Shown here: positions 6,732-50,038 of the stretch, piece after piece
How positions within the stretch are numbered: position 1 is the first letter of the stretch
How the letters are laid out: every line of letters starts with the position of its first letter
NCBI RefSeq assembly: GCF_964204645.1
Contig: NC_134034.1
Span: 5,430,914 to 5,494,913, forward strand
Reading direction: 5' to 3'
Length of the DNA stretch: 64,000 nucleotides
Origin: Tubulanus polymorphus
Lineage: Eukaryota > Animalia > Nemertea
Notes under the pieces: generated by a model
Seen by the model: only the letters and a program-made list of their open reading frames with translations
What the model was told of the DNA's origin: nothing
Database searches by the model: none
Position numbers and translations under genes: made by a program

Positions 6732-7254
6732 AGTAATAGGGATAATAGGCTTTCATACCAAAGGTCGAAGGGTCGAGCTCGTAAAAAAATGAAAATAATA
6801 ATTTACAGTTGAATTAGTCGCGCACACTCCTAATTCAACTGTAAATTATTATTATTTTCATTTTTACTCACCCGCCCCTTCAACCTTTGATATGAAAGCC
6901 TATTATCCCTATTACTCTTAAAATATTCACATATATATGAATAACATTTAAATCATTGAACTTCTAAAATCAATTTTAATAAAAAATATAGTATTAAAAT
7001 GGAAGCAAATAAATACTACTGCCCAACATGTAAGATAAGTATAGATAAATCCCAAAAAGCAAGACACAATAAAACTATAACACATTTAGAGAATAAATTG
7101 AAATTAGAATATGAAGATGATATATTAGAAACTAAATTAGAAGAATTAAAGAATGAAAAAGAAACATATAAATGTGATACATGTAATCAATCATTCAGTG
7201 ATAAAAGATATTATAAAGAACATTTAAAATCTATAAGTCATATTAGAAATAAGA
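6732..7254 (+). repeat. Left TIR of A (523 bp), with terminal 185-bp palindrome at 6732-6916
   Basis: Reverse complement of 23926-24450 apart from a 2-nt homopolymer difference and about one substitution. Confidence 0.97.
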
Positions 7255-7262
7255 GACCTTAG
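6999..7262 (+). CDS. TIR-duplicated N-terminus of pPolB (two C2H2/matrin-like zinc fingers), truncated
   Basis: First 85 aa identical to the ORF starting at 24181; CPTC..H..H and CDTC..H..H. Confidence 0.6.
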   Translation: MEANKYYCPTCKISIDKSQKARHNKTITHLENKLKLEYEDDILETKLEELKNEKETYKCDTCNQSFSDKRYYKEHLKSISHIRNKRP

Positions 7263-8289
7263 TCGTTTTACAAACAACTACAATCATATAGTACATTTGT
7301 TACATGTTATTATAAGAGAGTGCTTCATTTGAATATTGATCAATCAAACAGGTGTTGCACAACGTTGTTGTTATATAATAAGCACGCACGCAGTACATAC
7401 AACACACACAAGCCAGTTAGCCGGTATTGAATTACTGCGTTTTCATTAGTTGCTGAAAGCGAGGTTTATTTAAATTAGCTCGGCCGTGACGATAGGAGGA
7501 TAGTCATCATTCTATCGTGATTAAAAGGAATATTTCAATGTTTTTACGGTAAGTTTTAGCAAAATTGCCCTATCCTCGACCTATAGAGTTTTCAGGGGAT
7601 AAGCATCCCATTATTGAAAGGCGCCACGGGACGCTTATCCCCCGTCATTTCTACTTACACCCCCGGCGACCCACATCAACCGAGATCTCCTTCAATGATT
7701 GGTAGAAATCACATTATATTAAAGGCGCCTAATGTAATTTCTACCAACCTCGAAATTCGAAACCGAAGGAGAAACCCGGAGAGTGGACGAAGGTGCATTT
7801 TCAAAATGCCTCTGCTGGCCAGAGCTACTCCAGTGGTTGAATGAATTACCTTATATACTTAGCTAAAACACCTAAGTAAATGTTGTTGGTGTTAAAAAAA
7901 TATGTGAAATTTGAAATTATAAATTATTCCGAATGAAAAGAATGTAAGAATGAAAACTGATAAATGAATTATGTATTTTTAACTTCATTATGATATAATT
8001 TTTAATCAAATTAGTAATCAATTACTATATTAATTGATTAACAAATTCAAATATTCATTTTAGCACTCAGTGCTCCCATCTTTCAATTTAAGAAAAAACT
8101 AATAATAAGAAACGACTGTAATACAATATTCAAATAAAAACAAAATAAATTAATAAAAATAATGATTATCTAGAATCCGAAATGACTTATCTGGACAATT
8201 TAATTGCTCCACATAGATAGACAAAAGTAGTGAGATATTCAATTATTTTTTTTCATACTCATCACCACAAGTAATTTTTTTCCTAATAA

Positions 8290-8964
8290 ATGGAACCAGA
8301 ACAACCACAAATTATCAATATTACAAATAACACTGGTGTTATAAACATATATTACAAAAAGTGTTCTAAATGTGAATTAGATAAATCATTAACAGAATTT
8401 AGTAAGCGTAAGATTAGCAAAGATGGTTTTCAATATTACTGTAAAACTTGCATTAAACTATATACCAAACAATACCGAGAAGATAATAGAGAATCTTATA
8501 ATGATTATATGACAGAATATATGAGAGAAAGATATCAAACAGATCTTAATTTTAGATTAAAACAATGTTTACGGTCTAGATTAACACAATTATTCAACAA
8601 AGAAACACATTCAGAAACATTAACTAATTTGTTGGGTTGTTCAGATGAATTTCTCAAATCATGGATTATATTTCAATTCGATGATAAAATGAATATAGAT
8701 AATTATGGGGATTATTACCATATTGATCACGTGTTACCAATATCTAAATTTAACATGAACGATGAATACAATAAAAAACTTATTTGGAATTGGAAAAATT
8801 TAAGACCTTTAGAAAAGAAAGAAAATCAAATCAAATCTAATAAAATAGATTTACAGTTATATTTGAATCAACTGGAAAAAGTAAAAAAATTTATTGATTG
8901 GTGGAATAGTAACCCACAGAATGAACAATATGTTGAGGAATTTGATATCAAGGATCCGAAATGA
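8290..8964 (+). CDS. HNH-family endonuclease with N-terminal CxxC zinc ribbon (giant-virus-like)
   Basis: KKCSKC...CKTC; YHIDHVLP...WNWKNLRPL..EN..KSN. Confidence 0.8.
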   Translation: MEPEQPQIINITNNTGVINIYYKKCSKCELDKSLTEFSKRKISKDGFQYYCKTCIKLYTKQYREDNRESYNDYMTEYMRERYQTDLNFRLKQCLRSRLTQLFNKETHSETLTNLLGCSDEFLKSWIIFQFDDKMNIDNYGDYYHIDHVLPISKFNMNDEYNKKLIWNWKNLRPLEKKENQIKSNKIDLQLYLNQLEKVKKFIDWWNSNPQNEQYVEEFDIKDPK

Positions 8965-9265
8965 CTTATCTGGACAGTTATAGTTACTGCTCCTAATAGA
9001 TAAACAAAAGTAGTGAGATATCAAATAGAATTCAAATAAAATATATTAAAAAAACAATAACTTCAACTGCTAGTGAATTCTGTTATATTTTTAATATTTT
9101 CTTTTCAAAAAGAGAATACTTTATATTTTGAATAGATTCAAATAGAAATTCTTTAAATTCAAATAGCTAGTATCAGTAGTCAATACTAGAATTCTTTAGC
9201 TTTAACTAGCTAGTATCATTTTATAATACTTATAATATTTTTCTTATTAAATTTCTCTAATATAA

Positions 9266-9868
9266 ATGTCAAAGAAATCTAATAAGAATAGTATTGATAT
9301 TGAAAAGACATTAGATGATTTAGGTATTAGTGATAATAAAGATACAGTTGCAACTAATTGTGCTCAAGTTAATAACAATATAGATTATGAATACTACTTA
9401 TATTGTAAGCATCATCTTGAATTATTAATTGCTGGCGGGAAATCTAAGGACTTCTTAGGAAAAATAATAACTTTTCAAGAACTAGACTCTATGAAACCCG
9501 ATAAAGTAATCAAATATTTTAAGATTTATGAAGAGGCAAGATTAGCTAGAATAAATGATTCTATTTCAGATGGTATTGTCAAATGTTATTCAAAATTATG
9601 TAACCAGTTAATACCAATTGATGATGAAAATAAATTATATAATGATTTGAAAAATGACTATTTAGTTATGACTGAATTACAAAAATGGGTTGGATATGCT
9701 TCATTTCAATTAGGATCGGTTATGACATTAATTTCTACTGGAGTTATAACATTTTCGAACATCAAACCTATGGAATATAAATCAGGTAAGAACGAAACAG
9801 ATGTACTACAACCAAACGTCGAAACAGAAAATGAATCAAAACAAAAATTAACTAAAATAAATGAGTGA
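9266..9868 (+). CDS. Conserved hypothetical protein with a hydrophobic segment near the C-terminus
   Basis: TAAATG start; homologue in copy C (starting at 57494, minus strand). Confidence 0.8.
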   Translation: MSKKSNKNSIDIEKTLDDLGISDNKDTVATNCAQVNNNIDYEYYLYCKHHLELLIAGGKSKDFLGKIITFQELDSMKPDKVIKYFKIYEEARLARINDSISDGIVKCYSKLCNQLIPIDDENKLYNDLKNDYLVMTELQKWVGYASFQLGSVMTLISTGVITFSNIKPMEYKSGKNETDVLQPNVETENESKQKLTKINE

Positions 9869-10247
9869 TGGAGTTAAGAAAAAGGCTAGATCAGAGAAAC
9901 AAATTAAATGGGTAAGAGAATTAGGTAAAAGATCATCAGAATTAAAAAAAGCTAAGAAAAAGAAATTAACTGATATAAATGAATCACCTGATGATGCCGT
10001 ACGGCACCCACACGGTGGTATTGATTCAAATGATAATCCATCTAATTCTTCTAATGCTGGAAGTAATTATAAATTATATATTACAATTGGATTAGTAACA
10101 GTTATTATATTATCCGGTGTAATATATAAATCAAAATTCAAATCTGATGATAAAGATGATTCCAATGATAACAAACATATTATACCAGAAAATAAGTCAA
10201 ATCATAAATCAAATGAAAATAAATCTAAAATATTATTAATGGATTAA
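9861..10247 (+). CDS. Hypothetical single-pass membrane protein with basic N-terminus
   Basis: LYITIGLVTVIILSGVIY segment; homologue at 53368-53723. Confidence 0.8.
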   Translation: MSDGVKKKARSEKQIKWVRELGKRSSELKKAKKKKLTDINESPDDAVRHPHGGIDSNDNPSNSSNAGSNYKLYITIGLVTVIILSGVIYKSKFKSDDKDDSNDNKHIIPENKSNHKSNENKSKILLMD

Positions 10248-10250
10248 AAT

Positions 10251-11351
10251 ATGATGAAAAAAGAACAATATTTAAGAGATTTATATTATAACCCAGAAAG
10301 TGAAGTATCATATTCTAACGTTTCGGAATTATGGGATAAAATTAAATCTGATAAAGAAAAAATAAAATATAGTGAATTAAAATCATGGTTACAAAATCAA
10401 CCCACATATCAAATTCATAAAAAGATGGATAAAAAATATTTAACAAGAAAAGTAATGGTTTCATATATTGACCAACAATGGCAAGCTGATTTAATTGACA
10501 TGAAAAACTTAGAAGAATATAACAAAGGATATTTTTGGATACTAAATGTTATAGATATATTCAGTAGATACGCATGGAGTATCCCGATTAAAAATAAAAC
10601 TGGTATAGAAGTTACAAATTCTTTCAAATTAATATTTAAAGAAGCTATCCCAGATAAAATACAATTTGATGAAGGTAAAGAATTTTATAACAAACATTTT
10701 AAAAAACTATTAACTGATAACGATGTAGAATATTTTTCAACACATTCAGATAAAAAAGCATCCGTTATAGAAAGATTTAATAAAACATTGAAAACTAGAA
10801 TGTGGAAATATTTCACCGCTAATGAAACATATAAATATATCGATGAGTCTATAAATATATTAGATGATTTAGTTAAAGGTTATAATAATTCTAAACATAG
10901 TTCTATAAATATGAAACCTATACAAGCTAGAAAAGAAGAAAATTCAGAAATAGTTTGGAATAATTTATATGGTGCGTTTGTTACACATGATTTTGGAGAA
11001 CCTAAATTTAAAATTGGACAACATGTTAGAATTTCTAAATATAGAAAAACATTTTATAAAGGTTATACCCCTAATTTTACTGAAGAAATATTTAAAATTA
11101 AAAAGATAATATTAACTAAACCATTTGTTTATAAATTGTTTGATTTAAAAGATGAAGAAATATTAGGTTATTTTTATGAACAAGAATTATCATTAGTACC
11201 AAACCCAGATGAAATAGAATACAAAATAGAAAAGGTATTGAAAACAAAAACTCTTAAAGGAAAAAAGTATTCTTTGGTGAAATATAAAGGGTATGATGAT
11301 AAATTTAATGAATGGATTTTATCTAGTAAAATTAAAAGAATAAATGAATAA
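10251..11351 (+). CDS. Retroviral-like (rve) integrase with C-terminal chromodomain
   Basis: WQADLIDM, IQFDEGKEF and VIERFNKT supply the DDE residues; YKIEKVL..YSLVKYKGY..FNEW chromodomain. Confidence 0.95.
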   Translation: MMKKEQYLRDLYYNPESEVSYSNVSELWDKIKSDKEKIKYSELKSWLQNQPTYQIHKKMDKKYLTRKVMVSYIDQQWQADLIDMKNLEEYNKGYFWILNVIDIFSRYAWSIPIKNKTGIEVTNSFKLIFKEAIPDKIQFDEGKEFYNKHFKKLLTDNDVEYFSTHSDKKASVIERFNKTLKTRMWKYFTANETYKYIDESINILDDLVKGYNNSKHSSINMKPIQARKEENSEIVWNNLYGAFVTHDFGEPKFKIGQHVRISKYRKTFYKGYTPNFTEEIFKIKKIILTKPFVYKLFDLKDEEILGYFYEQELSLVPNPDEIEYKIEKVLKTKTLKGKKYSLVKYKGYDDKFNEWILSSKIKRINE

Positions 11352-11955
11352 AGATTTATTTATATTTGAACCACATAATATGTTAGTTACTGGAGTTACA
11401 AATTGTGGTAAAACACACTTCATATTATATTTATTAGAAACTATTTATAAGAATCATTTTGATAATATAATATTATTCTGTCCTACTTATGAAATGAATG
11501 AAACATATAATAGAGATATAGTTAAGATAAAAAAGTTTATTATATTAGATCCTAAAACAGTAAAAGAAAATTTAGATAATTGTATTAAAATTGCATTAGA
11601 TATTTATAAAGGATCAAATACATTATTTATTATCGATGATTGCGCAAATTTACATGATTCAAAAGTTAGAGAAAGTGAGTTATGTTATTTAGCTTTCTCT
11701 GGTAGACATTTTGGGATAACAACATGGGTTTTAAATCAGAAATATAATTCAATTGTGAAAGACTTTAGAGAGAATATAAGATTTCTAGTTTTATTCTACA
11801 ACAAAGATAGAAAATCTATGCAACAATCATTAGAAGAAAATCAAATTATACCTACTGAATTACATGATGAATATATGAATAAATTAAAGAATAATAAAGG
11901 TTCAAAATTATTAATGAGATTACAATTTCCATATGAATATAAATTTATAAAATAA
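11344..11955 (+). CDS. A32/FtsK-like DNA packaging ATPase
   Basis: Walker A GVTNCGKT, Walker B FIIDD, GRH motif, LNQ. Confidence 0.93.
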   Translation: MNKDLFIFEPHNMLVTGVTNCGKTHFILYLLETIYKNHFDNIILFCPTYEMNETYNRDIVKIKKFIILDPKTVKENLDNCIKIALDIYKGSNTLFIIDDCANLHDSKVRESELCYLAFSGRHFGITTWVLNQKYNSIVKDFRENIRFLVLFYNKDRKSMQQSLEENQIIPTELHDEYMNKLKNNKGSKLLMRLQFPYEYKFIK

Positions 11956-11975
11956 CTATTTGTATACCAATGTAT

Positions 11976-12068
11976 TAGATACCCTAATACCTGATACCCT
12001 AATACCTGATACCCTAATACCTGTTACCCTATTAGATACCTTAAATAATTTAAACCCCCTTTTTTTAT
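11976..12068. terminator. Convergent-gene junction: 15-bp GATACCCTAATACCT repeats then CCCCC-T8
   Basis: Lies between converging ORFs; similar motif at ~43175-43226 and, inverted, at ~51430-51700. Confidence 0.45.
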
Positions 12069-12090
12069 TTACTATCATTTTATACAATTT

Positions 12091-13143
12091 TTAACCTTTA
12101 TTATTTTTGAGTGTTAGATAATCAATTTCTGAATCAATTTCTGAATCACTTTCACTATCAGATGACCCTAACACCATATTTAAATGCTCTACCGAATCTA
12201 CATTAACATCTTTATAATTTTTTTTCACCTTTTTCACCTTTTTCGCCTTTTTTTCCTTTTTTATCTTTTTTACCTCATCATCAATAGTTGTTTCATTTTT
12301 TAACTTATTCTTCCAATCAAATTTATTATTATTTTCTACTTTAAGTTTTATAGAATCTTTATTATCAATATGTTTAACTGTAACTATATCATCATGTGGG
12401 CGTATGACATCATTTTCATTATCATCTTTATTAGTGTTTGCTCCTAATATTTCATTTACAGTGTTTGATCCTAATATTTCATTAGCATTGGTTAAATCTA
12501 ATTCATCTTTATTAGGTGTTGCTAATAATAAATCTTCATACATTTTTTCACCATTTACTTTTTTATTTGAAACAAACTTTGTAACATATCTAAATGGGTG
12601 TTCTATAAATTCTTTTTTACCAACACGTTCTATAACATTAGTAATATGTGAATTTGTATTCATATGTTTATTCCAATTTGATGGAGCGTTTGAAAATTCA
12701 CCATTACAATAACCACAATAATTTCTATTTTCACTAACATCTAATATTATTGCATTATTAGATGTAGAAGGTATTATGTTATTAGATGTAGAAGGTATTA
12801 CGTTATTAGATGTAGAAGGTATTATGTTATTAGATGTAGAAGGTATTACGTTATTAGATGTAGAAGGTATTATGTTATTAGATGTAGAAGGTATTATATT
12901 ATTTGATGTAGAAGGTATTATATTATTTGATGTAGAAGGTATTTCATTATTATCAATTACATTACTTAAATTATCAACAACTTCACTTTTATTATTATCG
13001 ATTTCTATTAGTTTAGTTTTATAATTTTTAAAAATAGGATCAAATATCAAAGCTATATTACAAGGTATTACATAATATAAACCATCATTATTTTCATGTG
13101 TATCGATGTATGGAATATGTTTATATACTTTACCTCCTTCCAT
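12091..13143 (-). CDS. Hypothetical protein with ~8 IIPSTSNN repeats, a zinc finger and a Lys-rich/acidic tail
   Basis: 24-bp tandem repeat at ~12750-12945; CGYC..HMNTNSH; TAAATG start. Confidence 0.8.
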   Translation of the reverse strand: MEGGKVYKHIPYIDTHENNDGLYYVIPCNIALIFDPIFKNYKTKLIEIDNNKSEVVDNLSNVIDNNEIPSTSNNIIPSTSNNIIPSTSNNIIPSTSNNVIPSTSNNIIPSTSNNVIPSTSNNIIPSTSNNAIILDVSENRNYCGYCNGEFSNAPSNWNKHMNTNSHITNVIERVGKKEFIEHPFRYVTKFVSNKKVNGEKMYEDLLLATPNKDELDLTNANEILGSNTVNEILGANTNKDDNENDVIRPHDDIVTVKHIDNKDSIKLKVENNNKFDWKNKLKNETTIDDEVKKIKKEKKAKKVKKVKKNYKDVNVDSVEHLNMVLGSSDSESDSEIDSEIDYLTLKNNKG

Positions 13144-13175
13144 TTATTATATACATTTTTATTAAAGTTAAAATT

Positions 13176-14423
13176 TTAATACATAACACTATCTAATTGT
13201 GAATTTACAATATTTAATTGCGCGTCAGATATAATATAAATGTGCATTTTAAAATTTTTGATTCCTTTATTCTTTTTCATGAATAATTGTATTCCATCTT
13301 TTGTATTTTGTAGTTTTTTTCCAGAACCATGTAATGAATTATCTTCAGTTGTTCTAAAATCTAACCATAATGCATATTTATTACCGGTATAATAATCAAT
13401 TTGATTAATGTTACAATTTTCAAATGATTTTACTTTTTCATTCATAAAATGTTTTTTAATTTCTACCCATTGATCTATCATTCTCATTCCTTGACAAAAT
13501 ATTTTATTCGCTATTCCTTCGATAGTTATTTCTACTTTTGTTATTTCAGGATTATAATAATTGTCAACATTTATTGCGCCATTAGTATACGTTCCAATGG
13601 TAAAAAATATTAATATACCTTTAATAGATCTTCTAGGAAAGTTAATATTCTCATTAATTATTTCATCATTTGCATTAATAGTTACAGTTTTAAATTTATC
13701 AATATAATCATATAATAATGAAAACCCTTGATTGTATTTAGTTTGAATTATATTTGAAATATTTTCATCAGTTACTGTATCATATTCTAAACATATATTC
13801 GATAATTTATAACTCATATCTTTAACAACGCTAGATAATACAATTTCATTTACAGGAGCAAATGTTATCTCAAATATAATATCTTCTTGAATTGCGTATT
13901 TATATAAAGGTGCATTATTATTTATCAATTCAAAGTCTAATGGAATTTTATATTTGCTTCCATATATACTTTTTATCAATTTATCTACATCATTTGTTAA
14001 TATTGCGCTATTAGCTTCTGATCTTAATTTATTTTGGTTTTCCGATTGGATGCCTTGAAATATCATATTATTTCTATTTTCTTTAGTTAACCATAAATCT
14101 TTATAATGCATAAATAAATTATAATCATCTAATGAGAAAACTGTTTCAGGACCAATCTTTATTGTTAACTTTTTAATCAAATATCTCCCAACATTATCAA
14201 CAACATAATTATTATTATTACCGATTACTTTTATATCAGCTGATAAATAAATACTGTTTGGAACATAAAAAGTATTTTGTGTTAATCTAGGAATTCTAAC
14301 GTATAAAGTTTCATCGGGATTAATATTTGAAGGGTTATGAGTAATTATATGATGTGATCTTTCTGCTTTAATAGCGTTAGATATTCTAGAAATCTTCGAA
14401 GGACTTATATAAATCCCACTCAT
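13176..14423 (-). CDS. Major capsid protein (double jelly-roll, hexon-like)
   Basis: 415 aa, beta-rich pattern (NPSNI..LYVRIP, LIKKLTIKIG, YKIPL), size and context typical of Polinton MCP. Confidence 0.8.
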   Translation of the reverse strand: MSGIYISPSKISRISNAIKAERSHHIITHNPSNINPDETLYVRIPRLTQNTFYVPNSIYLSADIKVIGNNNNYVVDNVGRYLIKKLTIKIGPETVFSLDDYNLFMHYKDLWLTKENRNNMIFQGIQSENQNKLRSEANSAILTNDVDKLIKSIYGSKYKIPLDFELINNNAPLYKYAIQEDIIFEITFAPVNEIVLSSVVKDMSYKLSNICLEYDTVTDENISNIIQTKYNQGFSLLYDYIDKFKTVTINANDEIINENINFPRRSIKGILIFFTIGTYTNGAINVDNYYNPEITKVEITIEGIANKIFCQGMRMIDQWVEIKKHFMNEKVKSFENCNINQIDYYTGNKYALWLDFRTTEDNSLHGSGKKLQNTKDGIQLFMKKNKGIKNFKMHIYIISDAQLNIVNSQLDSVMY

Positions 14424-14451
14424 TTATTTAACAAAAAAAATTAATTATTTA

Positions 14452-14530
14452 TTTTTGATATTTTTTGATATCATGGTTTACTTGATATTTTTTGATATCA
14501 TGGTTTACTTGATATTTTTTGATATCATAT
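14452..14530. repeat. 27-bp tandem triplication at the end of the 533-aa gene
   Basis: TTGATATTTTTTGATATCATGGTTTAC, about 3 copies. Confidence 0.85.
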
Positions 14531-16106
14531 TTACTAACCCAAAAATAATAGCACTTACAACTGTAATTAAAAATAAAATAATATGTTCAGCAGCAAAGTT
14601 AATAATGTTTCCTGCAGATTTCAATATAAAACCAACAATTGATGCAATAACTCCTGGTAAAGCTGCAGCAGATTTCTTTGATAGTTCCCATAAATATTTT
14701 GCTAATTTCTTTAAACCATCTTTAACTTTATCTTGTATAGAATTATTGCCTGGAGGTTTATCTGGTTTATTAGGAGTGGGAGTAGAAGTAGATTTTAAAG
14801 CATTTGATATAGCTAAACCTATTGTTGTAAATAACATAGTTACAGCTGTTAGAATTGAAAGAATTGTTATTCCTTCTAATTTAAATAATAACTTTATTCT
14901 GTCTTTTAGTGATATTTCAGAATTTGGTTTAATCAACAAATCTTTAAAAATAACTTTTAATCTATTTATATTATAATCATATGATTTTAATAATAATTTA
15001 ATTTCTTCTTTTTGTAATTCTATGTTATATTCTAAATCATCAATTTCTTTTTCTAAATATGCATTTCTTTTTTTAAATTCAATTTCTTCAATAACTTTAT
15101 TATCTCTATCTAATTTTAGTTGTTCTATTTCTTTATTTTTATCAGTTCTATCTTTTTCCAAATACATAATTTTTTGATCTCTTATACTTTTATTATGTGC
15201 AATTTTATCAGCTGATTCTTGCGTACCTTTAATTTCTCTACGTGCTTGTTCAGGAAATGATTCTAATTCATCATCAGTTAAATCAAGTAATCCTTTTTCT
15301 AGTAAATATTCCAGTCGATTTATTCCACCACTATTCATTTCTTCTTCTGAATCACTTAATCTATTAATTTGTTTTTCTAATTGTAATTGTAATTGTAATT
15401 GACTTGAATCATTATCAATTGGTTGAGTGTCTCTTCTCGATGTTTCGGGTGTTGAAGATCTTAATTTATCTAATCGATTTCTATTCTCTTCCATTTCTGG
15501 TTCTAAATTATCATAGATTTTCTCAAATAACTCATTAATTCTTTGTTTAAATAATTTTTTAAAGTTATCTATTTCTTCTTTTGTTACATCTTCTAGTTTA
15601 TTATTATAAATAATTTTCTTAATTCTATCTGGTTCTAACTTAAGCAAAGTTGATTCTGCCAATATTTTGTTTTGATTTTTATAAGAGATATTAATATAAA
15701 ATTCACCATTTAAATTATCACCATCCAAATAATAATAATATTCACCATCTAAATATTTTAAATCTTTTACTAAAAGTCTAGCGCCTCTATCATTTATATT
15801 ATAACCAGATTCTTCAAATAAAGGTTTAAAATCATAAATAAATTCATTATATTCTAATTCTTGTCTTGCTAAATCTGGATTTTCATTTTCAGTATTTATT
15901 CTCTTTCTATTTGTTCTATCAAATTCATCTGTTGATGGGATTTTAGAACCACTATCTGCTAAATTAGAATTATATGTTGATTCATCATCATTATCAATAT
16001 TAGTTTCATTAAGATTAGCGCCTGCATCATTATAATCATCATCAATATATCCTTCATTATTATTTCCCATTTCTTTCATTTCATAATCTACTCCACCTTT
16101 TGCCAT
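14505..16106 (-). CDS. Large acidic/coiled-coil protein with C-terminal hydrophobic helices (putative virion membrane protein)
   Basis: ITILSILTAVTMLFTTIGLAI, LPGVIASIVGFIL and IILFLITVVSAIIFGLV segments; C-terminus conserved in copy C. Confidence 0.8.
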   Translation of the reverse strand: MAKGGVDYEMKEMGNNNEGYIDDDYNDAGANLNETNIDNDDESTYNSNLADSGSKIPSTDEFDRTNRKRINTENENPDLARQELEYNEFIYDFKPLFEESGYNINDRGARLLVKDLKYLDGEYYYYLDGDNLNGEFYINISYKNQNKILAESTLLKLEPDRIKKIIYNNKLEDVTKEEIDNFKKLFKQRINELFEKIYDNLEPEMEENRNRLDKLRSSTPETSRRDTQPIDNDSSQLQLQLQLEKQINRLSDSEEEMNSGGINRLEYLLEKGLLDLTDDELESFPEQARREIKGTQESADKIAHNKSIRDQKIMYLEKDRTDKNKEIEQLKLDRDNKVIEEIEFKKRNAYLEKEIDDLEYNIELQKEEIKLLLKSYDYNINRLKVIFKDLLIKPNSEISLKDRIKLLFKLEGITILSILTAVTMLFTTIGLAISNALKSTSTPTPNKPDKPPGNNSIQDKVKDGLKKLAKYLWELSKKSAAALPGVIASIVGFILKSAGNIINFAAEHIILFLITVVSAIIFGLVNMISKNIK

Positions 16107-16122
16107 TTATATAATAAAAAAA

Positions 16123-17271
16123 TTAAAATTTAAAATATAATATTCCTCCGATTACAATTCCTATACAAGTTATAGCTAATTTAGTATTTTCATGTGATTT
16201 ATTATCATTATCAGTTTTAATTATATCATGTTGAATTTTAACAGTTCTATTATTTTCTGATGTATTGTAATCTTTTATTTTAGAATCATTAACCAATTTA
16301 TTATTCTTAGTTTTAGTTTCTGTTGATTGAATGTGTTTTTTATTTTTTTCACCTTCCATTAATTTTGGAGCAGTAATAATCTTTTTATTTATATCATTTA
16401 ATCCAAATGAATTATTTATTGTTGCAGTTTTAATTAGATTATTATAACCAATTATATTTCCCATCTTTAATACTAAATCATTAGAAATAATTAATAGATT
16501 AGGGCCTATACAATAATTAAGTCTTACATGAGATTTATCTAAATAATTTTGATATCTTATAATGTTTTCTGGAATCGATCTATTTTTATCATTATGAATT
16601 GAATCTTCAAATAAAACTTTGAATTGTTTTTGTGTATCGAATGATGTATTCAAATTTCCAATTATCGGTGATCTTGTTTCAACTTGTGATCCTAGAATAC
16701 AAATCAAATAAGTTCTAATAGATTGATTTATTCTTTCTATACCTGATTTAGTAAAACCTTCACTATTTTCTAAAATAAAATAAACCCAACCATTATTGTT
16801 TTCTTGTTTTAAATTATCATAAAATTTCGGTAATTTATTGAAATTTAATGTTTCTAAATCCTTTGTTTCTATTTTACCATAACCTAATTTTTTATTATAG
16901 ATATTATAAAAACTATTAGATGGTATGGGAAGTGCACAATATTCTGCAATCTTTCTAGGGCAAGGAAGTGATCTTATTGTTCCAATTTTTATTCTAAAAT
17001 CAGAATTATTTATATCTATATTAAATTCATTGCAAATTTTATAAAACTTTGATAAATTAATATTATTATCCAATTCTTTAAAATATCTAGATCCTGGTAA
17101 AGCGCACTCTAATTCATTTAATATTATTCTGATTTGAAAGTATGTATGAAATCTAAATAAACTTTGAATTAGTTTATATTTAGAATTATTCAAATGATCA
17201 TTCCAACTAATTCCACATCCTGTTGTTGCACAATAAACAGCAAAATTTAATTGATTCTGCCAATACTTCAT
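16123..17271 (-). CDS. Conserved hypothetical protein with C-terminal transmembrane anchor
   Basis: YWQNQLNFAVYCATTG start present in all three copies; LAITCIGIVIGGILYF. Confidence 0.8.
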   Translation of the reverse strand: MKYWQNQLNFAVYCATTGCGISWNDHLNNSKYKLIQSLFRFHTYFQIRIILNELECALPGSRYFKELDNNINLSKFYKICNEFNIDINNSDFRIKIGTIRSLPCPRKIAEYCALPIPSNSFYNIYNKKLGYGKIETKDLETLNFNKLPKFYDNLKQENNNGWVYFILENSEGFTKSGIERINQSIRTYLICILGSQVETRSPIIGNLNTSFDTQKQFKVLFEDSIHNDKNRSIPENIIRYQNYLDKSHVRLNYCIGPNLLIISNDLVLKMGNIIGYNNLIKTATINNSFGLNDINKKIITAPKLMEGEKNKKHIQSTETKTKNNKLVNDSKIKDYNTSENNRTVKIQHDIIKTDNDNKSHENTKLAITCIGIVIGGILYFKF

Positions 17272-17286
17272 ATTAGATTTTAATAA

Positions 17287-17511
17287 TCATTGTTTTTCAT
17301 CTTTCAATTTTTTAAAATTAATCAAATATACATGAAATATATTTTCCATCTTTGCATTAAAATTATTACTTTCAGTAACATAAATATATAAATCAATTAA
17401 TGAATCTAAAACTTCATTTCTATATGTAATATCTTCATTAAAATCTATTGCTGGAATATTATATTTAATTGATTTATTATATTGGAAAGCTTTTGGAAAA
17501 CTATCTGCCAT
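17287..17511 (-). CDS. Small hypothetical protein
   Basis: TAAATG start; decayed homologues in B and C. Confidence 0.65.
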   Translation of the reverse strand: MADSFPKAFQYNKSIKYNIPAIDFNEDITYRNEVLDSLIDLYIYVTESNNFNAKMENIFHVYLINFKKLKDEKQ

Positions 17512-17527
17512 TTATATAATTAAAAAA

Positions 17528-17962
17528 TTAATAATTAACTAATTCTTTTAATAATTTATCTTGTTCTTCAACTGTTATATGACCATTTAAACTTATTATA
17601 TAATCTAGTGTGTTCTTTAATTTATTAATTTCTTTTATATTAGTTTTAATTTTTTCTTTATTACTTTTTATATTTAATTTTGAACTTATACCAGTTAAAA
17701 CACTTGAACTTAATCCTAATACACCAATTGATATAGCTAAAGGTGTTAATGGACTGAATATTGCTAGAAATGTTATTACAGAACTAATTGTAACCGAACC
17801 ACTGATAATCAAATAATATATAATTTTACTTTTTAAATATTTTTTCTTTTTTATCTTTAAGTCACTTTCAAATTCTAATATTTGTTTTTCTAAATATGTT
17901 TTTAATTTAGTTTTATTTATATCATGAGGAATATTATCAATACTATCAACTTTATCTTCCAT
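17528..17962 (-). CDS. Two-TM hypothetical protein flanked by coiled coils
   Basis: Two hydrophobic helices; homologues at 42193 and 46674. Confidence 0.8.
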   Translation of the reverse strand: MEDKVDSIDNIPHDINKTKLKTYLEKQILEFESDLKIKKKKYLKSKIIYYLIISGSVTISSVITFLAIFSPLTPLAISIGVLGLSSSVLTGISSKLNIKSNKEKIKTNIKEINKLKNTLDYIISLNGHITVEEQDKLLKELVNY

Positions 17963-17981
17963 TTATTTAGAATAAAAATTA

Positions 17982-18404
17982 CTAATTAGTAAACTTATAA
18001 GCAACAAATATAACAATAACTGTTCCACCTAAAATCCATATTATTTCATATTTCTGTTGTTCTTTACTTGGGGTATAATAATCTGATAATTTAGGTTTGT
18101 ATAGATGTAATTTTTCTTTATTTGTTACCGCGTTATATAAACTCATTGCATCATCAACTGATTGAAAATCTCTATGTGAAATCTTCTGATCATATAATTC
18201 TTTATTGATGTAATCCATATAGTTTTGTCTCTTTTCTCTATATTCTTCTGCATCTTTATTGTATTTCTCTAACGCTAAATTATGTCTTCTTTGTTCTCCT
18301 AATGAACTATTTTTATCAATATGTTTAAATAAATAACCACCACCTGTAAATGCTAAAGCGTTAACAATTGCTGATCCTATAATAGTTATAATTGCAGAAG
18401 CCAT
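17982..18404 (-). CDS. Hypothetical protein with hydrophobic N-terminus and C-terminal TM helix
   Basis: MASAIITIIGSAIVNALAFTGGG...IIWILGGTVIVIFVAY; homologues in B and C. Confidence 0.8.
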   Translation of the reverse strand: MASAIITIIGSAIVNALAFTGGGYLFKHIDKNSSLGEQRRHNLALEKYNKDAEEYREKRQNYMDYINKELYDQKISHRDFQSVDDAMSLYNAVTNKEKLHLYKPKLSDYYTPSKEQQKYEIIWILGGTVIVIFVAYKFTN

Positions 18405-18428
18405 TTATTTAGCAAAAAAATTATGCAT

Positions 18429-18650
18429 TTATATGGGAGGAATATATTTTTGTTTTTCCAAATAATCAATTGTTAAATTAGATAAAGTAACTGCTAATGT
18501 TAATTTTAAAATATCATTTATATCAAATCTATCAACATTAACACTTCCCATTTTGAATACTTTTTTTAATACCATTGAATAACCAACAGTTCCAACTGAT
18601 AGTAATGCGCCATTATATAATCCAGTTATTATCCACTTATTATCACTCAT
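18429..18650 (-). CDS. Small hydrophobic protein
   Basis: TAAATG start; homologue at ~41456-41720. Confidence 0.7.
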   Translation of the reverse strand: MSDNKWIITGLYNGALLSVGTVGYSMVLKKVFKMGSVNVDRFDINDILKLTLAVTLSNLTIDYLEKQKYIPPI

Positions 18651-18992
18651 TTATTTATCAAAAAAATTACTATCATCAAAATATTTAGTTAACTTATTTA
18701 TGATTAATTCAACATTTATTTTATTACTAGTTTTATGATTATCATATATTTTGGTTAATATGTTTTTAATATCATCAATAATTCCATCTTCATTTAATTC
18801 ATAATATTCTAAAGGTGATTTAATTAAATCAATTACTTTTTCTATATTATACTTTTCTTTATCAATCATTGATGCATTGTTAAATGATTTACTTTTTATA
18901 TCAGTAATTACATCATTTAGTTTAATTCTCATTTCTTTACCATGTTTAAAATCAAACCCAAAACATATACTCGGTCCAACAGTTATATTCAT
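18651..18992 (-). CDS. Hypothetical protein
   Basis: TAAATG start; homologue at 41114. Confidence 0.75.
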   Translation of the reverse strand: MNITVGPSICFGFDFKHGKEMRIKLNDVITDIKSKSFNNASMIDKEKYNIEKVIDLIKSPLEYYELNEDGIIDDIKNILTKIYDNHKTSNKINVELIINKLTKYFDDSNFFDK

Positions 18993-19009
18993 TTATATAA
19001 TGAAAAAAA

Positions 19010-19762
19010 TTACTCTCTACATCTTATAACTAATTCATAAATTACAGGGAAATTATTTAAATCAATTAAGTATCCATTATGATTTCTAATTTCTAATCTA
19101 AAATTATTAAATTTAGGAATGCAAGGTTTGAAATCACATTCTGTTAAATTATAATTTATTTGCGTTCCAAATTCTTTAACATTCTTCAATGGTAAAATGT
19201 TTAGTAAACCAGAATTACAAGTTATATCTTTAGTTGCTTCGAATGTTTTTGTAGGATCGATTAAATTGCAATAAATATAAAAATGTGTGTAAGGTATTAA
19301 GTTTGGTGTAGCATCAACATTTGAATAAAGTTTATCTGGTGTAATTCCTAACAGTTTAGCTATAGGTTTTTTAACTAAAAATTGATATTTCTCACTACGA
19401 GTTAACCTAATCCTTATTTTATCAGAACTATCACTTTTTAAAAATCTAATACTAAACCCGGAATTACTACCTAATTTGTGCCAGGTTTTTCTATTAATTT
19501 CTTGTGCTAATGTATCTAAATTATATAACCCTAGTTTTAAATATATATGATACCTTTTATTTTTTTCCTGAACTATAAACAATTTATGATCAATAGTTTT
19601 ATCCGTTATATTATAAAAAGAATTACATAAACTTATATTAACTAATTTTAAATCTACACAATTCTTAAATTCTCTATCTAATTGAACTAGTAAATTATGA
19701 GATTTATAATTTGTAAGCCTTCTAGAATCTACAAATATTCTGTATTCTTTTAATTCTACCAT
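19010..19762 (-). CDS. Minor capsid protein (penton-like single jelly-roll)
   Basis: IFVDS, NSFYNI, FYIYCNLI, LLNILP and FRLEIRN..G.LIDLNN patterns typical of Polinton pentons. Confidence 0.8.
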   Translation of the reverse strand: MVELKEYRIFVDSRRLTNYKSHNLLVQLDREFKNCVDLKLVNISLCNSFYNITDKTIDHKLFIVQEKNKRYHIYLKLGLYNLDTLAQEINRKTWHKLGSNSGFSIRFLKSDSSDKIRIRLTRSEKYQFLVKKPIAKLLGITPDKLYSNVDATPNLIPYTHFYIYCNLIDPTKTFEATKDITCNSGLLNILPLKNVKEFGTQINYNLTECDFKPCIPKFNNFRLEIRNHNGYLIDLNNFPVIYELVIRCRE

Positions 19763-19779
19763 TTATTTTACATATTTTC

Positions 19780-20121
19780 TTATTCGAAATCTATTTCATG
19801 GTGCCCTTTTTCATTCTTACCTTTGTATACGAAATAGAAATCTCCAGAACATAATTCTTCTAAATCTTCACTTGATAATCTATGAAATCTATCTGGTAAA
19901 TAAGTTCTGAATTTATATGTATTTCCTTTTAATCCTTCATATTCTAAATGAATTACTAATTTATCTCCATATTTATTAGTAATTGTAACAATATTTGTAA
20001 TTAAATATTTCTTATGAATTGTTAACTCAGTTAGTTTTTTAAATTTATAATCTACAGATTTGACGCTTGAAGTATCTTTAATTCTATCTAAGAATTCACT
20101 GTGTACTTGTTTACTCTCCAT
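19780..20121 (-). CDS. Small conserved protein, possibly OB-fold ssDNA-binding
   Basis: FKKLTEL..KYLI...NKYG.KLVIHL..TYLPDRF pattern; fold is an inference; homologue at 39972. Confidence 0.6.
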   Translation of the reverse strand: MESKQVHSEFLDRIKDTSSVKSVDYKFKKLTELTIHKKYLITNIVTITNKYGDKLVIHLEYEGLKGNTYKFRTYLPDRFHRLSSEDLEELCSGDFYFVYKGKNEKGHHEIDFE

Positions 20122-20149
20122 TTATTATACAAATTTTTATTGAAATTGA

Positions 20150-23100
20150 TTAACACGCTAGAATCCTTTTCATAATCTCATTTTCTTTTGTTTCTTCTCT
20201 TTTGAATTTTATATATTCATCTAAATTGCAACCATAGGCGACTGTGTGGATTCCATCATCTAAAATATATCTTTTATCATCAAATGGGTTTAGACTTATC
20301 TTCTCTATTTCTTCAATAAACATTTCGTGGTACTCAGATCTTAAACATTTCATCTTATGTTTTCTAACTTCTTCATTAAATATACAATTGATGTAATCTT
20401 TGAAATGAATATTCTTTTCTACTACACTTTTGGTTATTCCTTTTAACTTTTTAGCTTCATGAGTTTTAGTTTTATATGAATACATTTTAGATCTAATACC
20501 AATAAACTCTATCATTTCTTCACCACCTAATTCATCCTTAAACTTCCCTGGAACTTTTTTATTATCATTGCTAAACAATTCATGATTTTTTGGATAATTA
20601 CTAAAATCAAAATGGTGTTTTAATGTTTTTAAATCATCTGTTATGTTATCAGTTTTTATCTTTAATATGTAACTGTCGGTATCAAAGTATAGAATTTCTA
20701 TGTGTTTTTCTCCAAAATGGGGTTGTAATATGTTATAGTAAAATTTATACATTAGTAATTTTGAAATTTCTAGAACTGATGCACCAACATAGATTGGTTT
20801 ATTGAACTTCATAGAAGTTCTTCTCATCTTAACTGCTGCTAAATTTTCATCAAATATTCTGTTACCTATAAACTTAGGATATGATTGTAAATGCCTAATT
20901 CTTTTACCATTACTGACTAACTCGATATCATTTCTATTTCTAATATTTTCACAAGTCTTACCATAGAATGCATTATTCATTAACTTGAAGAAATCCTTCT
21001 CAAAATCAGTTTTAGATTTAGTTCTCTGTGTAGTATTAAAATCTATATATTTTTCTAACCATTTAGATTGACTGAATGAAATATATCTATGTACTTTTTT
21101 TAATATCATTCCTTGATTCAAATAAAACTTCAACATTCTATAATGTACTACATAATTATATTTATCTTCTTGAGTCACCATTAACTTTTCAGTATGAATA
21201 TGATTATCGGGTTTAATTCTTTTTTGATAATTTGATAATTCTTCATGTTTAACAGTTTTATGTTCGGGACAATATGCTAGATTTCTAGATTTGAATTTAA
21301 TATTTTCGGGGTATTCAAGGTCTACAACAAAGAAGTAACCAGTATCTGAATCATCTGCAATATCTAGGATTCTTTTCTTTCAATCAAATTTATCAATTTG
21401 TAAAACTTCAGTTATTTCAAACATCCCATAAGGTTGTGGTTCCATCATTGCCCAACCATAAAGATTATTTGCATCTATGTATAATAATTTATATCCAGGA
21501 TTATCATTTACATTGAAATATCTATCACCCAATACACCTGAAACACCTCCTCTTATAGATTTTTCAAATAATAGTAATTGATCTATATTTGTTAACAAAT
21601 CCATTTTTATATCTGTAAATTTTAATCCACAATCCCATGTTAATCCTGGTGATGAATAACAATGACAAGGATCAATGTTAAAATATTTTAGGTTTACATC
21701 TCTAAACCTTTCGAATATATCGGTTAATAATAATACATCTGATTTTAAATATAAATCTACTAATTGCCCATGATTTGTTATTTTGAAATGATTCCAAATA
21801 TTCAATGTTCTATTATAAACTTCATCTTTAACATATTCATTTTTTAATTCATCATAAAATTGTTCTTTTAATAATTCAGTTATATTAAAATCATTATGAT
21901 TTTTATAGAAAGAATATGGAATTGCGCCTTTATATCTCATTAATTTAAAATCATCATAATTTGGGTAATATTCTTTTAATATCTTTAATTCATCATCAAC
22001 TAATGATTTTGATAAGTTATCTAATGAACTACTTAAAAATCTATATGAATCTATAAATCTTAAGCATCCAAATTGGAAAGATATATAATTCTCAGATGTT
22101 TTAGCTAACATTCTAAATTTATAAGTTGGTATTTTATCTTTTGATCTATTTGAATTTAATATTTCTATTTCATTATTGATTTCTTCTATTTTATGACATA
22201 ACTGTTTGATAAATAAATGTGCATCATATCCTGATAGATTATGAAATATAACTGGTACAAAGTTAATTTTCTTAGCTTGTAAGTTACAATTCTCATGTGC
22301 AGCGCCTCTAAACTTTCCATTCAAATGATCATGGTCTCTTACTTTTTTATCTTTATAATTAAATATCTTTTCACAATGATAACATTTATCTGCAAACTCA
22401 AATTCTTCTTTATCTTCTTCTGTCATAATTATTTCTTTATTTGTATTCAATAATTTACTAAATCTTATTTCATATTCAATTAATAAGTCACAAAAATGAT
22501 TGATAACATTTTCATTTCTATAATTATAATATTCACTTTCGATTAGTTCTGGATAATCAGATTTAATATATAACCCGAAAGCAGCAGCTGATTGATGAAT
22601 CTTTTTAATAGTATTTGTTATTGGTGGTTCATCTGAATAATCACTTTCATTAGAATTTAATTTCTTTCTTTTATAATATATATCTTTTCTATCTTTATCT
22701 GTTAATTCTTTATTTAATGATTCAAAATCTCCATATATTACAAATGGTACTTTATTTTTGTAATCATATTTTTTGAATTCTAATATTTTATCCTTTTCAT
22801 TTGGTAAAACTAATTTACAATAATCATGATTATCACACAGTTGTTTATGATTTAATAATATACTTTCATTACTAAATTTATGTAAACATTTTCTACATAG
22901 ATATATTTTATTATGGTGATCACTTTCTGTTCTAAAAAATAAATCTATTTGTTTAATCCACATATAATGATTCTCATAATATAATATATCTATAACATCG
23001 TTTGAATCATAATCTTTTGATAGGTATAAAGGTTCTAATGTATAATGTTTAATATTATTTCCTTTTGTATTTGGTAATTTAATTAAATCAAATACATTTA

Positions 23101-24181
23101 TTTTAAGATTATTATCTCTTTCTATTTTTGGGATGTTTTTAATTCTAACAGGATACTTATCTATCTTATAATTATTTTCAAATGGTTTATAATGAGTTAA
23201 TCTAAAACTATGTGTAATATCTTCTGTTGGATGTAAACAACTTATTATAGCCCATAGAAAACATTTATCATCTTCATTTTGTATATTTATTACAGCATTA
23301 GTTTTAAATGGTAGTTTAATATAACTTGTTCCATTTATACTATCATCTTTATAATATGATAAATTATTTTCATCAATTGGTTTTGATTTAGTTAACTTAT
23401 TATATTTTGTGTTATAAACATGTAAAGTTATAAATATTATCTCATCAAATATTAAACCAGATCCTTCAAAATATTTCTCTTCTATTTTAGTTTTTATTTC
23501 ATTATAACATTTTTCTAATTTATCATCTATATGTTGTTTAGATATAATATGTTGTGAATGAGAATTTATATTATATATTGGTTTATCTTCAGATTTTATA
23601 AACTTTACTTTAGAAGATATACTTATTTTAGGATATTCTACGTTTGTAATTATTTTTATTATTTCTTTCATATTTTCTAAATGTTTTTTATTTTCTTCTA
23701 ATGTTTTACCTTTATGAAATTTAAACTCGATAGCTGCTGGACCAATATCACTTTTAAATGCTTCGGTTATCTCTATATCTTTTTTATTATCTAATGAATT
23801 AATATAATTTCTTACATCTTCCATGTATGGCCTTTTATTGTTTAATTTATTTTTTATTCTTTTAATTGTCTTCTGTTTCTTATTGTTATCATTATCAAAA
23901 TAATCTTCACCTAAAATATCATTATTCTTATTTCTAATATGACTTATAGATTTTAAATGTTCTTTATAATATCTTTTATCACTGAATGATTGATTACATG
24001 TATCACATTTATATGTTTCTTTTTCATTCTTTAATTCTTCTAATTTAGTTTCTAATATATCATCTTCATATTCTAATTTCAATTTATTCTCTAAATGTGT
24101 TATAGTTTTATTGTGTCTTGCTTTTTGGGATTTATCTATACTTATCTTACATGTTGGGCAGTAGTATTTATTTGCTTCCAT
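20150..24181 (-). pseudogene. polB: Protein-primed-type family B DNA polymerase (1343 codons) with one in-frame TGA at 21382-21380
   Basis: Exo I VIYGDFES, EndoVII-like VRDHDH, YIDANNLYG, KLMNNAFYGK, YFDTDS; the two listed ORFs are in frame (198 nt apart); copy C has TGG at this codon. Confidence 0.93.
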
Positions 24182-24450
24182 TTTAATACTATATTTTTTA
24201 TTAAAATTGATTTTAGAAGTTCAATGATTTAAATGTTATTCATATATATGTGAATATTTTAAGAGTAATAGGGATAATAGGCTTTCATATCAAAGGTTGA
24301 AGGGGCGAGTGAGTAAAAAAATGAAAATAATAATAATTTACAGTTGAATTAGGAGTGTGCGCGACTAATTCAACTGTAAATTATTATTTTCATTTTTTTA
24401 CGAGCTCGACCCTTCGACCTTTGGTATGAAAGCCTATTATCCCTATTACT
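23926..24450 (-). repeat. Right TIR of A (525 bp), with terminal palindrome at ~24264-24450
   Basis: Reverse complement of 6732-7254. Confidence 0.97.
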
Positions 24451-25101: not shown

Positions 25102-25887
25102 ATGGCGGGAAGACAAAGTGTTTCACCCCCTAACAAGAAGCAGAAGACTGCAGCATCAAATCGTCCGAATCGCCAGAATCATAAATCGACTGAGGAAACG
25201 GCATCACGTGTGGAAGCAGACAATGGAATATCGTCAAAACTTGATGCGATTCTTTCCCAGCTTTCGAAATTAGAGCTTCTAGACGACTTGCAGAGGGACA
25301 TGACCGAAGTTAAACAATCGCTTGAATTTTGCCACCAGGACGTATTACAACTAAAGAGTGAAAACGAACAACTTAGAAGCAAAGTTCGCGATTTAGAGAA
25401 AGTCGTCGCTGATCAGGACGCAATTATCAAATCGGACCATGAACTACTCCTAGATCAGCAATGGCGTAGCATGCGCGATAATTTGATCTTTTACGGCGTC
25501 GAGGAATCCGAAAATGAGAATACCGAGGACTTAATTAAAGGCTTTTGCGAGAAAGACCTTAAGTTACCGAAGACGACCGTGGACTCATTCAAATTCGCGC
25601 GAACACATCGCCTTGGACGAAGGAAAAACGAACAGAAAAAACCGCGCCCAATTGTTGCAAAATTCGAGTTCTTCAAAGATCGTGAACTGGTACGTTCAGT
25701 TGCGAAAAATCTCGCGGGCTCGTCTTTAGGACTGAATGAACAGGTGCCTGAGGAATGGGCGGCGAGACGACGCGAAAAGCTACCCGAGCTGAGAGCCGCG
25801 AAAGCGAACGGAAAACAAGCTTTCTTTGTACGGGACAAACTCGTTATCCGCGAAAACCGTGACCGCGTACCGATGGACAGCCACTAG
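25102..25887 (+). CDS. LINE ORF1 (coiled coil plus RRM-like domain)
   Basis: RDNLIFYGV, THRLG, RPIVAKF; upstream of an APE-RT ORF. Confidence 0.88.
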   Translation: MAGRQSVSPPNKKQKTAASNRPNRQNHKSTEETASRVEADNGISSKLDAILSQLSKLELLDDLQRDMTEVKQSLEFCHQDVLQLKSENEQLRSKVRDLEKVVADQDAIIKSDHELLLDQQWRSMRDNLIFYGVEESENENTEDLIKGFCEKDLKLPKTTVDSFKFARTHRLGRRKNEQKKPRPIVAKFEFFKDRELVRSVAKNLAGSSLGLNEQVPEEWAARRREKLPELRAAKANGKQAFFVRDKLVIRENRDRVPMDSH

Positions 25888-26220
25888 GAACCAGCGGAGG
25901 GACTTTGCGTACAATTCGTAGACCGGACTGTCCTTGTATCTCGAAGTTGTTGTTATGTTATAGAATTTGTAAATAGTGTAAATTTATGTGACAGTTATCC
26001 AAATGTAAATAGAGATATCGTTGGCTCGCATGTAAATTCTCATACGGTAGATACATACCCTGATGTAAATAGTAACAATCATGTACCTGATGTAACTCCT
26101 AACAATTTCATTTCTGATGTACATAAGCGAAATATTAACACTTCTGATTTAAATAAGCAAAATGTAACTAGTACAGCAAACGCAGCAAACATAAGTGAAA
26201 TTCCTTGTATCAAATCATCA

Positions 26221-37134: not shown

Positions 37135-37239
37135 TCACTTCGCCTGACCAAAAACTATACTAAAAATGGTCCGAGTAAGTAGATCGACCCGACAAACAAT
37201 CTATCAGTGCCGCCATTTTGAATTTGATCCCATTTTGAA

Positions 37240-39971: not shown

Positions 39972-40325
39972 ATGGAGAGTAAACAAGTACACAGTGAGAA
40001 CAACAAATCATTTCTAGATAGAATCAAAGATATCACAAATGCTAAATGTGTAGATTATAAATGTAAGAAGTTAACAGAATTAACTATTCATAAGCAATAT
40101 CTAATTACAAATATTGACACAGTTATTAACAAATATGGAGATAAATTAGTTATACACTTAGAATATGAAGGATTAAAAGAAAATAAATATAAATTCAGAA
40201 CATATTTACCGGATAGATTTCATAGATTATCAAGTGAAGATTTAGAAGAATTATGTTCAGGTGATTTCTATTTCATATATAAGGGTAAGAATGAAAAAGG
40301 GCACCATGAAATAGATTTTGAATAA
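39972..40325 (+). CDS. Homologue of the putative SSB-like gene of A
   Basis: Highly similar to 19780-20121; intact ORF directly after the terminal hairpin. Confidence 0.75.
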   Translation: MESKQVHSENNKSFLDRIKDITNAKCVDYKCKKLTELTIHKQYLITNIDTVINKYGDKLVIHLEYEGLKENKYKFRTYLPDRFHRLSSEDLEELCSGDFYFIYKGKNEKGHHEIDFE

Positions 40326-40339
40326 AATATGTAAAATAA

Positions 40340-41096: not shown

Positions 41097-41113
41097 TTTT
41101 TTTCACTATATAA

Positions 41114-42926: not shown

Positions 42927-42927
42927 C

Positions 42928-48305: not shown

Positions 48306-48320
48306 TTTTTTATTATATAA

Positions 48321-50018: not shown

Positions 50019-50038
50019 TTAATTTTTTTGTTAAATAA

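Follow-up and report, generated by a model that had tools for sequence, protein, structure and literature searches.

A two-part, poxvirus-like start motif at the genes of a Tubulanus polymorphus Polinton is a likely promoter for the polymerase of a large DNA virus

INTRODUCTION

Mavericks, or Polintons (Polintoviricetes, "adintoviruses"), carry genes for a protein-primed family B DNA polymerase (pPolB), an rve integrase, an A32 ATPase and a double jelly-roll capsid protein, and they occur in many genomic copies with terminal inverted repeats (TIRs), 6-bp target duplications and AG...CT ends (PMC8097293, PMC8502044). The parts of these two papers that we searched report no promoter motif. We analyzed an element of this type in a 64,000-nucleotide stretch of the nemertean Tubulanus polymorphus (NCBI RefSeq assembly GCF_964204645.1, contig NC_134034.1, positions 5,430,914 to 5,494,913, forward strand), referred to as the window. 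The element occupies 6732..24450 of the window (17,719 bp; 24% guanine plus cytosine, or GC). It has pPolB (split), an rve integrase, TIRs, a 6-bp duplication, AG...CT ends, a double jelly-roll capsid and an A32 ATPase. Unlike the Mavericks described, it has no detected adenain-type protease, its capsid model is nearest to nucleocytovirus capsids, and most of its genes start at a motif of poxvirus type. The element is a Polinton by architecture, and we do not file it under the group 1 Mavericks/adintoviruses because no adenain-type protease was detected. Besides group 1, there are the group 2 Mavericks and an animal Aquintovirus-related set, the latter named in 10.64898/2026.06.19.733378.

Virophages respond only to helpers that share their late promoters, and mavirus-type elements are reactivated only if they carry the late promoter of the helper. 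The endogenous virophages of Cafeteria, mavirus and the endogenous mavirus-like elements (EMALEs), resemble our element in being integrating small DNA viruses, and their genes carry the late promoter of the helper (10.1101/2025.10.09.676808, 10.64898/2026.07.28.741278). However, they have protist hosts, an Imitervirales helper and a TCTA-type motif of Cafeteria roenbergensis virus (CroV), and their helper dependence was shown by experiment, whereas that of our element is presumed from its sequence. The virophage class Virophaviricetes is defined by a virophage-type capsid and a protease; virophage capsids rank 32 and 40 among the matches to our capsid model, nucleocytovirus capsids match best, and no protease was detected. 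Also comparable are the Polinton-like viruses associated with entomopoxviruses, which are small and have been proposed as poxvirus hyperparasites in animals (Barth et al. 2024, PMC11296320). These are found in insect occlusion bodies and encode a protease, whereas our element is endogenous with marine relatives.

The start motif resembles the promoters of vaccinia virus (PMC11980589, PMC12917281, PMC5294985). Vaccinia late promoters have TAAAT(G) across the start codon and a T conserved ten bases upstream, and intermediate promoters have TAAA with an A/T-rich tract 15 to 19 nt upstream, followed by a T; this late/intermediate split is described for poxviruses (PMC11980589). Relative to the start site, the TAAA occupies -1 to +3, and the viral polymerase itself reads it (PMC12917281); slippage on the AAA yields poly(A) leaders (PMC6211774). 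A fish poxvirus retains TAAATG at many core genes (PMC4542343, table), whereas in asfarvirus TATA serves as the late initiator (PMC7163114). In vaccinia virus, start site, slippage and factor dependence have been mapped; for our element they would be predictions from its sequence. The yeast elements pGKL1 and pGKL2 are not known to carry a capsid or integrase. They are cytoplasmic linear elements with a TAAAN initiator and a pox-related polymerase, but that polymerase is their own, encoded on pGKL2, and their upstream element is of the early type (PMC6211774).

RESULTS

A two-part motif marks the gene starts of the element. We found ATAAATG at 14 of the 17 gene starts. A first-pass annotation of the window had listed TAAATG at these 14 starts; all of them were verified, each with a further A in front. 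The three exceptions that it named are also correct, namely, the integrase (TTAAAAT-ATG), a gene of 382 amino acids (aa) (TCTAAT-ATG) and pPolB (TTAAA-ATG). Among spurious starts in the element, taken as first ATGs after an in-frame stop that do not belong to a gene, TAA precedes 44 of 465 (9.5%), and the enrichment over background on which the annotation depended is borne out (14/17 gene starts versus 44/465; Fisher P = 1.5e-11). Intergenic gaps are mostly below 35 bp, as annotated: 13 of 15 same-strand gaps measure at most 32 bp and the other two 81 and 301 bp, with the break inside pPolB excluded from the count. The second part of the motif, which the annotation did not contain, is a T at -12, present at 16 of the 17 starts. 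T also stands at -3 in 14 of the 17. One item of the annotation, a "Rep-like gene" with a TAAATG start, was not identifiable in the window. The only open reading frame (ORF) of at least 50 aa outside the Polinton copies that has such a start lies at 35708-36058 on the reverse strand; it has no Pfam match, and a GDSL-esterase-like fragment adjoins it.

The motif is shared by a lineage of related elements. We compared metagenome loci with a capsid alignment, using the best 80 of 215; L002 was omitted as a duplicate of L001, and L011, L012 and L014 are near-identical. TAAATG stands at 57 of 69 ORF starts in the 15 close loci and at 20 of 23 in L033, L067 and L068, which are more distant; for the motif-positive set of 18 loci, this makes 77 of 92. 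Across the remaining 61 loci the count is 8 of 377. Motif-positive loci range from 20 to 44% GC, and in the AT-rich subset of the motif-negative loci (18 loci under 40% GC) only 3 of 61 starts have TAAATG. Therefore, the motif is lineage-specific and is not an AT artefact. Of the TAAATGs at starts, 80 of 91 are accompanied by the T at -12, versus 47 of 162 of those that lie elsewhere in the same DNA (P = 2e-20). In 4 of 91 cases, the TAA doubles as the stop codon of the gene upstream, and the motif is carried by 31 of 39 block-first ORFs, that is, ORFs with no same-strand gene just upstream. These two counts remove stop-start coupling, and overlap with a poly(A) signal, as general causes of the motif. 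In one close relative, a gene for a deoxynucleoside kinase (L005:10340-10981) starts at TAAATG.

In the capsid tree, all motif-positive loci fall inside one 21-row clade, along with three motif-negative loci; this tree was made by a quick method with an unfinished search and holds 57 of 81 rows. The branching order within the clade is poorly settled, so the motif may have been gained once and then lost in places, or gained more than once. The ATPase and integrase trees, built with FastTree after the removal of 18 near-duplicate or fragmentary loci, reproduce the deep split of the capsid tree.

We also observed that sister lineages without TAAATG have a TATA at most 30 nt before the ATG, mostly at -5 to -20. 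It precedes 34 of 53 ATGs in 13 AT-rich loci (L016-L070) and 11 of 19 in L054/L053/L015, versus backgrounds of 18% and 9% that were not intergenic-matched. This TATA lies too near the ATG to be a TATA box for RNA polymerase II (Pol II), and it recalls the late initiator of asfarvirus.

The arrangement matches that of poxvirus late promoters in both parts. TAAAT overlaps the ATG, and the conserved T about 10 nt upstream sits in a T-rich patch. The -12 T is 9 nt before the T of the motif and 10 nt before its first A, the position of vaccinia +1 (PMC12917281), which places it within one base of the vaccinia description, as compared with the text of PMC11980589. The upstream T-run of the first-pass annotation proved to belong to one of two classes. 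Eight genes have a T-tract (6 to 7 T of 7) at -16 to -10: the capsid gene, four membrane-type or small family-wide genes, the HNH gene and two small genes. Six genes instead have an A-run at -19 to -13 followed by a T, namely, pPolB, the gene for a single-strand binding protein (SSB)-like product, the ATPase and the 350-, 250- and 128-aa genes, and these fit the intermediate-promoter pattern. By analogy, the two classes resemble the vaccinia late (T-rich) and intermediate (A-rich) promoters. Omitting L002, L012 and L014, we found the class preserved among orthologues of T-tract genes in 26 of 36 cases and of A-tract genes in 10 of 14 (P = 0.002, kinship uncorrected), and the A-tract class is mixed in distant loci.

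The element is bounded by TIRs and surrounded by decayed copies. Its ends are AGTAAT...ATTACT, with the 6-bp target-site duplication AGTGAT on both flanks. The left TIR (6732..7254, forward) is 99.4% identical to the right one (23926..24450, reverse) over 526 bp; the right TIR holds the pPolB start and the A-tract upstream of it, and the left carries a copy of the pPolB 5' end. An imperfect palindrome of about 185 bp opens each TIR (6732-6916 and 24264-24450; -63 kcal/mol, z = -17.7), which is unexpected for a purely protein-primed end; in the element copy at 39760, the palindrome is shorter and its loop different. Decayed copies of the same Polinton family, about 80 to 95% alike and in part duplicated, occupy much of the window from 39.8 to 64 kb (about 39760-53900 and 57270-64000). 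In these copies, TAAATG survives at 9 of the 15 motif-gene starts that align. In one DNA run, read depth across 13180-20120 climbs to about 1,000-fold (90 to 99% likeness), which would fit many diverged copies.

Five genes lie on the forward strand, and all except the integrase start at TAAATG. These are an HNH/endonuclease VII-like gene (8290..8964; T-tract), a family-conserved 200-aa gene (9266..9868), a 128-aa gene with one hydrophobic segment (9861..10247; A-tract) whose start lies within the gene upstream, the rve integrase gene with a C-terminal chromodomain (10251..11351), which has TAAATG in the relatives L001, L005 and L033, and the A32-like packaging ATPase gene (11344..11955; A-tract; Pox_A32, E = 3e-11).

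On the reverse strand, a 350-aa gene with 8-aa repeats and, as judged from the sequence, a C2H2-like motif (12091..13143; TAAATG, A-tract) is followed by the double jelly-roll major capsid gene (13176..14423; TAAATG, T-tract). The capsid model has a predicted local distance difference test (pLDDT) score of 90.6, and its top Foldseek matches are the capsids of the chlorella virus PBCV-1 and Singapore grouper iridovirus (SGIV), with an E value of 1e-17. Next come a family-wide 533-aa gene with C-terminal hydrophobic segments (14505..16106; TAAATG, T-tract) and the family-wide 382-aa gene (16123..17271), which lacks TAAATG here and has it in L033 and L068. The model of the 382-aa protein is mostly helical (pLDDT 66), with no fold match in BFVD. 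Five small genes follow, all with TAAATG starts: a 74-aa gene (17287..17511; T-tract), a 144-aa SLATT-like gene with two transmembrane segments (17528..17962; T-tract; match under the curated cut-off), a family-wide 140-aa gene that is hydrophobic at both ends (17982..18404; T-tract), a family-wide 73-aa gene (18429..18650), which is the only case in the element where the TAA of the start doubles as the stop of the upstream gene, and a 113-aa gene (18651..18992; T-tract). The 250-aa gene (19010..19762; TAAATG, A-tract) is a candidate for the minor capsid gene, a single jelly-roll one in Polintons; it groups with unnamed viral clusters, Preplasmiviricota being the commonest (score 0.98 but low recognition). 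Another 113-aa gene (19780..20121; TAAATG, A-tract) encodes a candidate phi29-type SSB (score 0.85). Finally, pPolB (20150..24181; TAAAATG start, A-tract, T at -12) is interrupted by a frame break near 21.4 kb, and its two ORFs match, at 31% and 46%, an L044 protein that is positive for Pfam DNA_pol_B_2.

Searches of Pfam, PHROGs and NCBIfam gave no adenain-type cysteine protease among the ORFs of the element. These databases and PDB gave no RNA polymerase or viral late transcription factor (VLTF) match for its genes and 55 further small ORFs, and a pox RNA polymerase subunit was not found in the element, in its copies or in those related loci that were searched. The capsid protein and integrase had no relative in the viral contig collection.

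Elsewhere in the window, we observed a long interspersed nuclear element (LINE) with ORF1 and an endonuclease-reverse transcriptase (25102-29496) and a Penelope-like reverse transcriptase/GIY-YIG ORF (59998-61599) inside a decayed Polinton copy. Such elements beside the Polinton point to an animal host, and a metagenome label among the sequencing runs that contain the stretch, from a run with a small share, points to a marine one. At about 33950-38150, inverted arrays of a 48-bp repeat (34126-34457 and 37262-37593) flank broken ORFs, one of them weakly GDSL-esterase-like.

DISCUSSION

Our best reading is that the element is a virophage-like Polinton that would be transcribed by a helper nucleocytovirus. 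The two-part motif is likely, with a probability of roughly 0.6, to be a promoter that is read by the RNA polymerase of a large DNA virus infecting the same cell, most likely one of the poxvirus lineage. The broader proposition that some nucleocytovirus, of whatever kind, reads the element appears somewhat safer. The first-pass annotation had suggested a pox-like or other nucleocytovirus polymerase. The nucleocytovirus-type promoter gains support because the motif is lineage-wide, independent of GC content, bipartite, built with T rather than a purine at -3, present at block-first genes and divided into two vaccinia-like classes. However, the label "poxvirus" is not exclusive. A pox-lineage helper falls somewhat short of even odds overall, and it would be the favored choice, at a little better than even, were the helper a nucleocytovirus; under that same condition, an iridovirus-like helper is possible but doubtful.

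The ground for this caution is that giant-virus contigs outside the poxviruses, picked out by promoter-pattern scans, also use the motif. G001, whose capsid is nearest to that of Singapore grouper iridovirus (E = 2e-115), starts 6 of 15 ORFs at TAAATG, G002 starts 15 of 44 and a third contig 16 of 45. It is unlikely, yet worth weighing, that the helper is an iridovirus- or marseillevirus-like virus (Pimascovirales) or another nonpox nucleocytovirus that uses TAA(A)ATG starts, and iridoviruses of marine invertebrates are known. However, starts in G001 and G002 vary (TAAATG, TAAAATG, TAAAAATG), and the T at -12 is weaker, at 2 of 6 and 8 of 15 (11 of 16 in the third; loci selected for that T), versus 80 of 91 in the motif loci. 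The late/intermediate split, moreover, is the one described for poxviruses (PMC11980589). No description of TAAATG starts in iridoviruses was found among the titles and abstract openings that we searched. With such starts at about one gene in three in iridovirus-like contigs, a poxvirus helper is at most favored. The loci with TAAATG at about one-third of ORF starts in giant-virus contigs, at least one of them iridovirus-like, are L086/L147, L087, L134, L136, L158 and L165/L194.

Could the host itself read the motif? As a Pol II core promoter or translation signal (an AT-rich initiator or leaderless start) fixed in the lineage, it would leave the element autonomous in the nucleus. The element does integrate, with a chromodomain integrase, 10 of the 14 motifs are overlapped by an AATAAA that might also act as a poly(A) signal, and no helper was found. 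Under the Kozak rule, a purine is usual at -3. The T at this position is the opposite, and the motif-negative AT-rich relatives have A there in 44 of 61 cases; Kozak context is rejected as the cause of the motif. The motif is also present at block-first and divergent genes that have no upstream transcript to end, and a TATA-like box abutting the ATG leaves no room for the Pol II spacing of about 24 bp (PMC7163114). We therefore regard a host signal as quite improbable. It is still less probable that a pox-related polymerase is donated not by a giant virus but by a sister element or a linear plasmid in the cytoplasm, in the way that yeast pGKL2 supplies pGKL1. The yeast virus-like elements combine a TAAAN initiator, 5' poly(A) slippage and a pox-related polymerase, but their upstream element resembles early rather than late pox promoters (PMC6211774), and searches of the element, of its copies and of related loci gave no such polymerase gene. 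An artefact of base composition or of stop-start (TAA-ATG) overlap in a compact, AT-rich genome can be dismissed as the origin of the motif: despite 24% GC, tight gaps and one real abutting stop-start pair, this explanation is refuted by the rate at null starts, the AT-rich relatives and the stop-overlap counts, and the motif is kept at 36 to 44% GC.

Several observations count against a poxvirus-type helper for the element. No helper genome was found; promoter-pattern scans of viral contigs gave 7 and 103 stretches (80 read), with TAAATG at 8 of 19 and 6 of 12 starts in the best loci, none of them recognized as a poxvirus. No gene ties the clade to poxviruses, since searches with the L005 deoxynucleoside kinase and the HNH protein gave unnamed matches and no donor virus, and the integrase is of a widespread type. 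The related loci are non-independent samples, the division into upstream classes fails in distant loci with clear reversals, and short divergent gaps occur in motif-negative relatives too and do not separate the groups. Neither early promoters nor specific avoidance of the pox early terminator TTTTTNT was found in the element: its coding strands hold 7 copies versus 10.8 expected (P = 0.09), and the pooled observed-to-expected ratio is 0.51, versus 0.60 for the control TTTTTNV. This would be expected if no early genes exist, and it gives no support. A strand asymmetry of TTTTTNT (7 sense versus 65 antisense) was rejected as a signal, as it is gone under codon shuffling. AATAAA in coding strands was uninformative (observed-to-expected ratio 1.00 versus 0.89 and 0.84). 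Finally, pPolB is split in this copy and the neighboring copies are decayed; therefore, the start motif may be a relic here.

If a helper nucleocytovirus does read the element, each gene of a free copy would be transcribed from its own promoter of about 25 bp, in the virus factory of the cytoplasm during infection. Initiation inside the AAA would give mRNAs with poly(A) leaders, as in vaccinia virus. The A-tract (intermediate-like) promoters of pPolB, the SSB-like protein and the ATPase would fire first, and the T-tract (late-like) promoters of the capsid and membrane proteins would follow. The integrase would then return copies to the germ line, where the element would stay silent in the chromosome without a helper.

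A TAAATG motif in Polintons is not described in the titles and abstract openings covered by our literature search. The word "promoter" is not mentioned in PMC11296320 (whose main text has neither "motif" nor TAAAT), PMC8502044, PMC11131425, 10.64898/2026.06.19.733378, 10.64898/2026.10.13.758929 or 10.1101/2024.03.23.586382, and its two mentions in PMC8097293 are unrelated. The feature is real and adds to the virophage-type arrangement, and the proposed mechanism is likely. More tentatively, a widespread Polinton lineage of animal genomes might consist of endogenous virophages of an undiscovered poxvirus of marine invertebrates, with the TATA sister lineages tuned to other, asfarvirus-like helpers. 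In that case, the promoters of endogenous Polintons would record, like fossils, giant viruses of animals that have not been seen.

No virions of animal Polintons have been seen (10.64898/2026.06.19.733378), and a lineage-wide, two-part promoter of pox type would make it testable how these elements are expressed and whether they are autonomous or depend on a helper. Our reading predicts a poxvirus-like (or iridovirus-like) virus in the probable marine animal host. It would carry virophage-type biology, which may be antiviral, beyond protists into the germ lines of animals.

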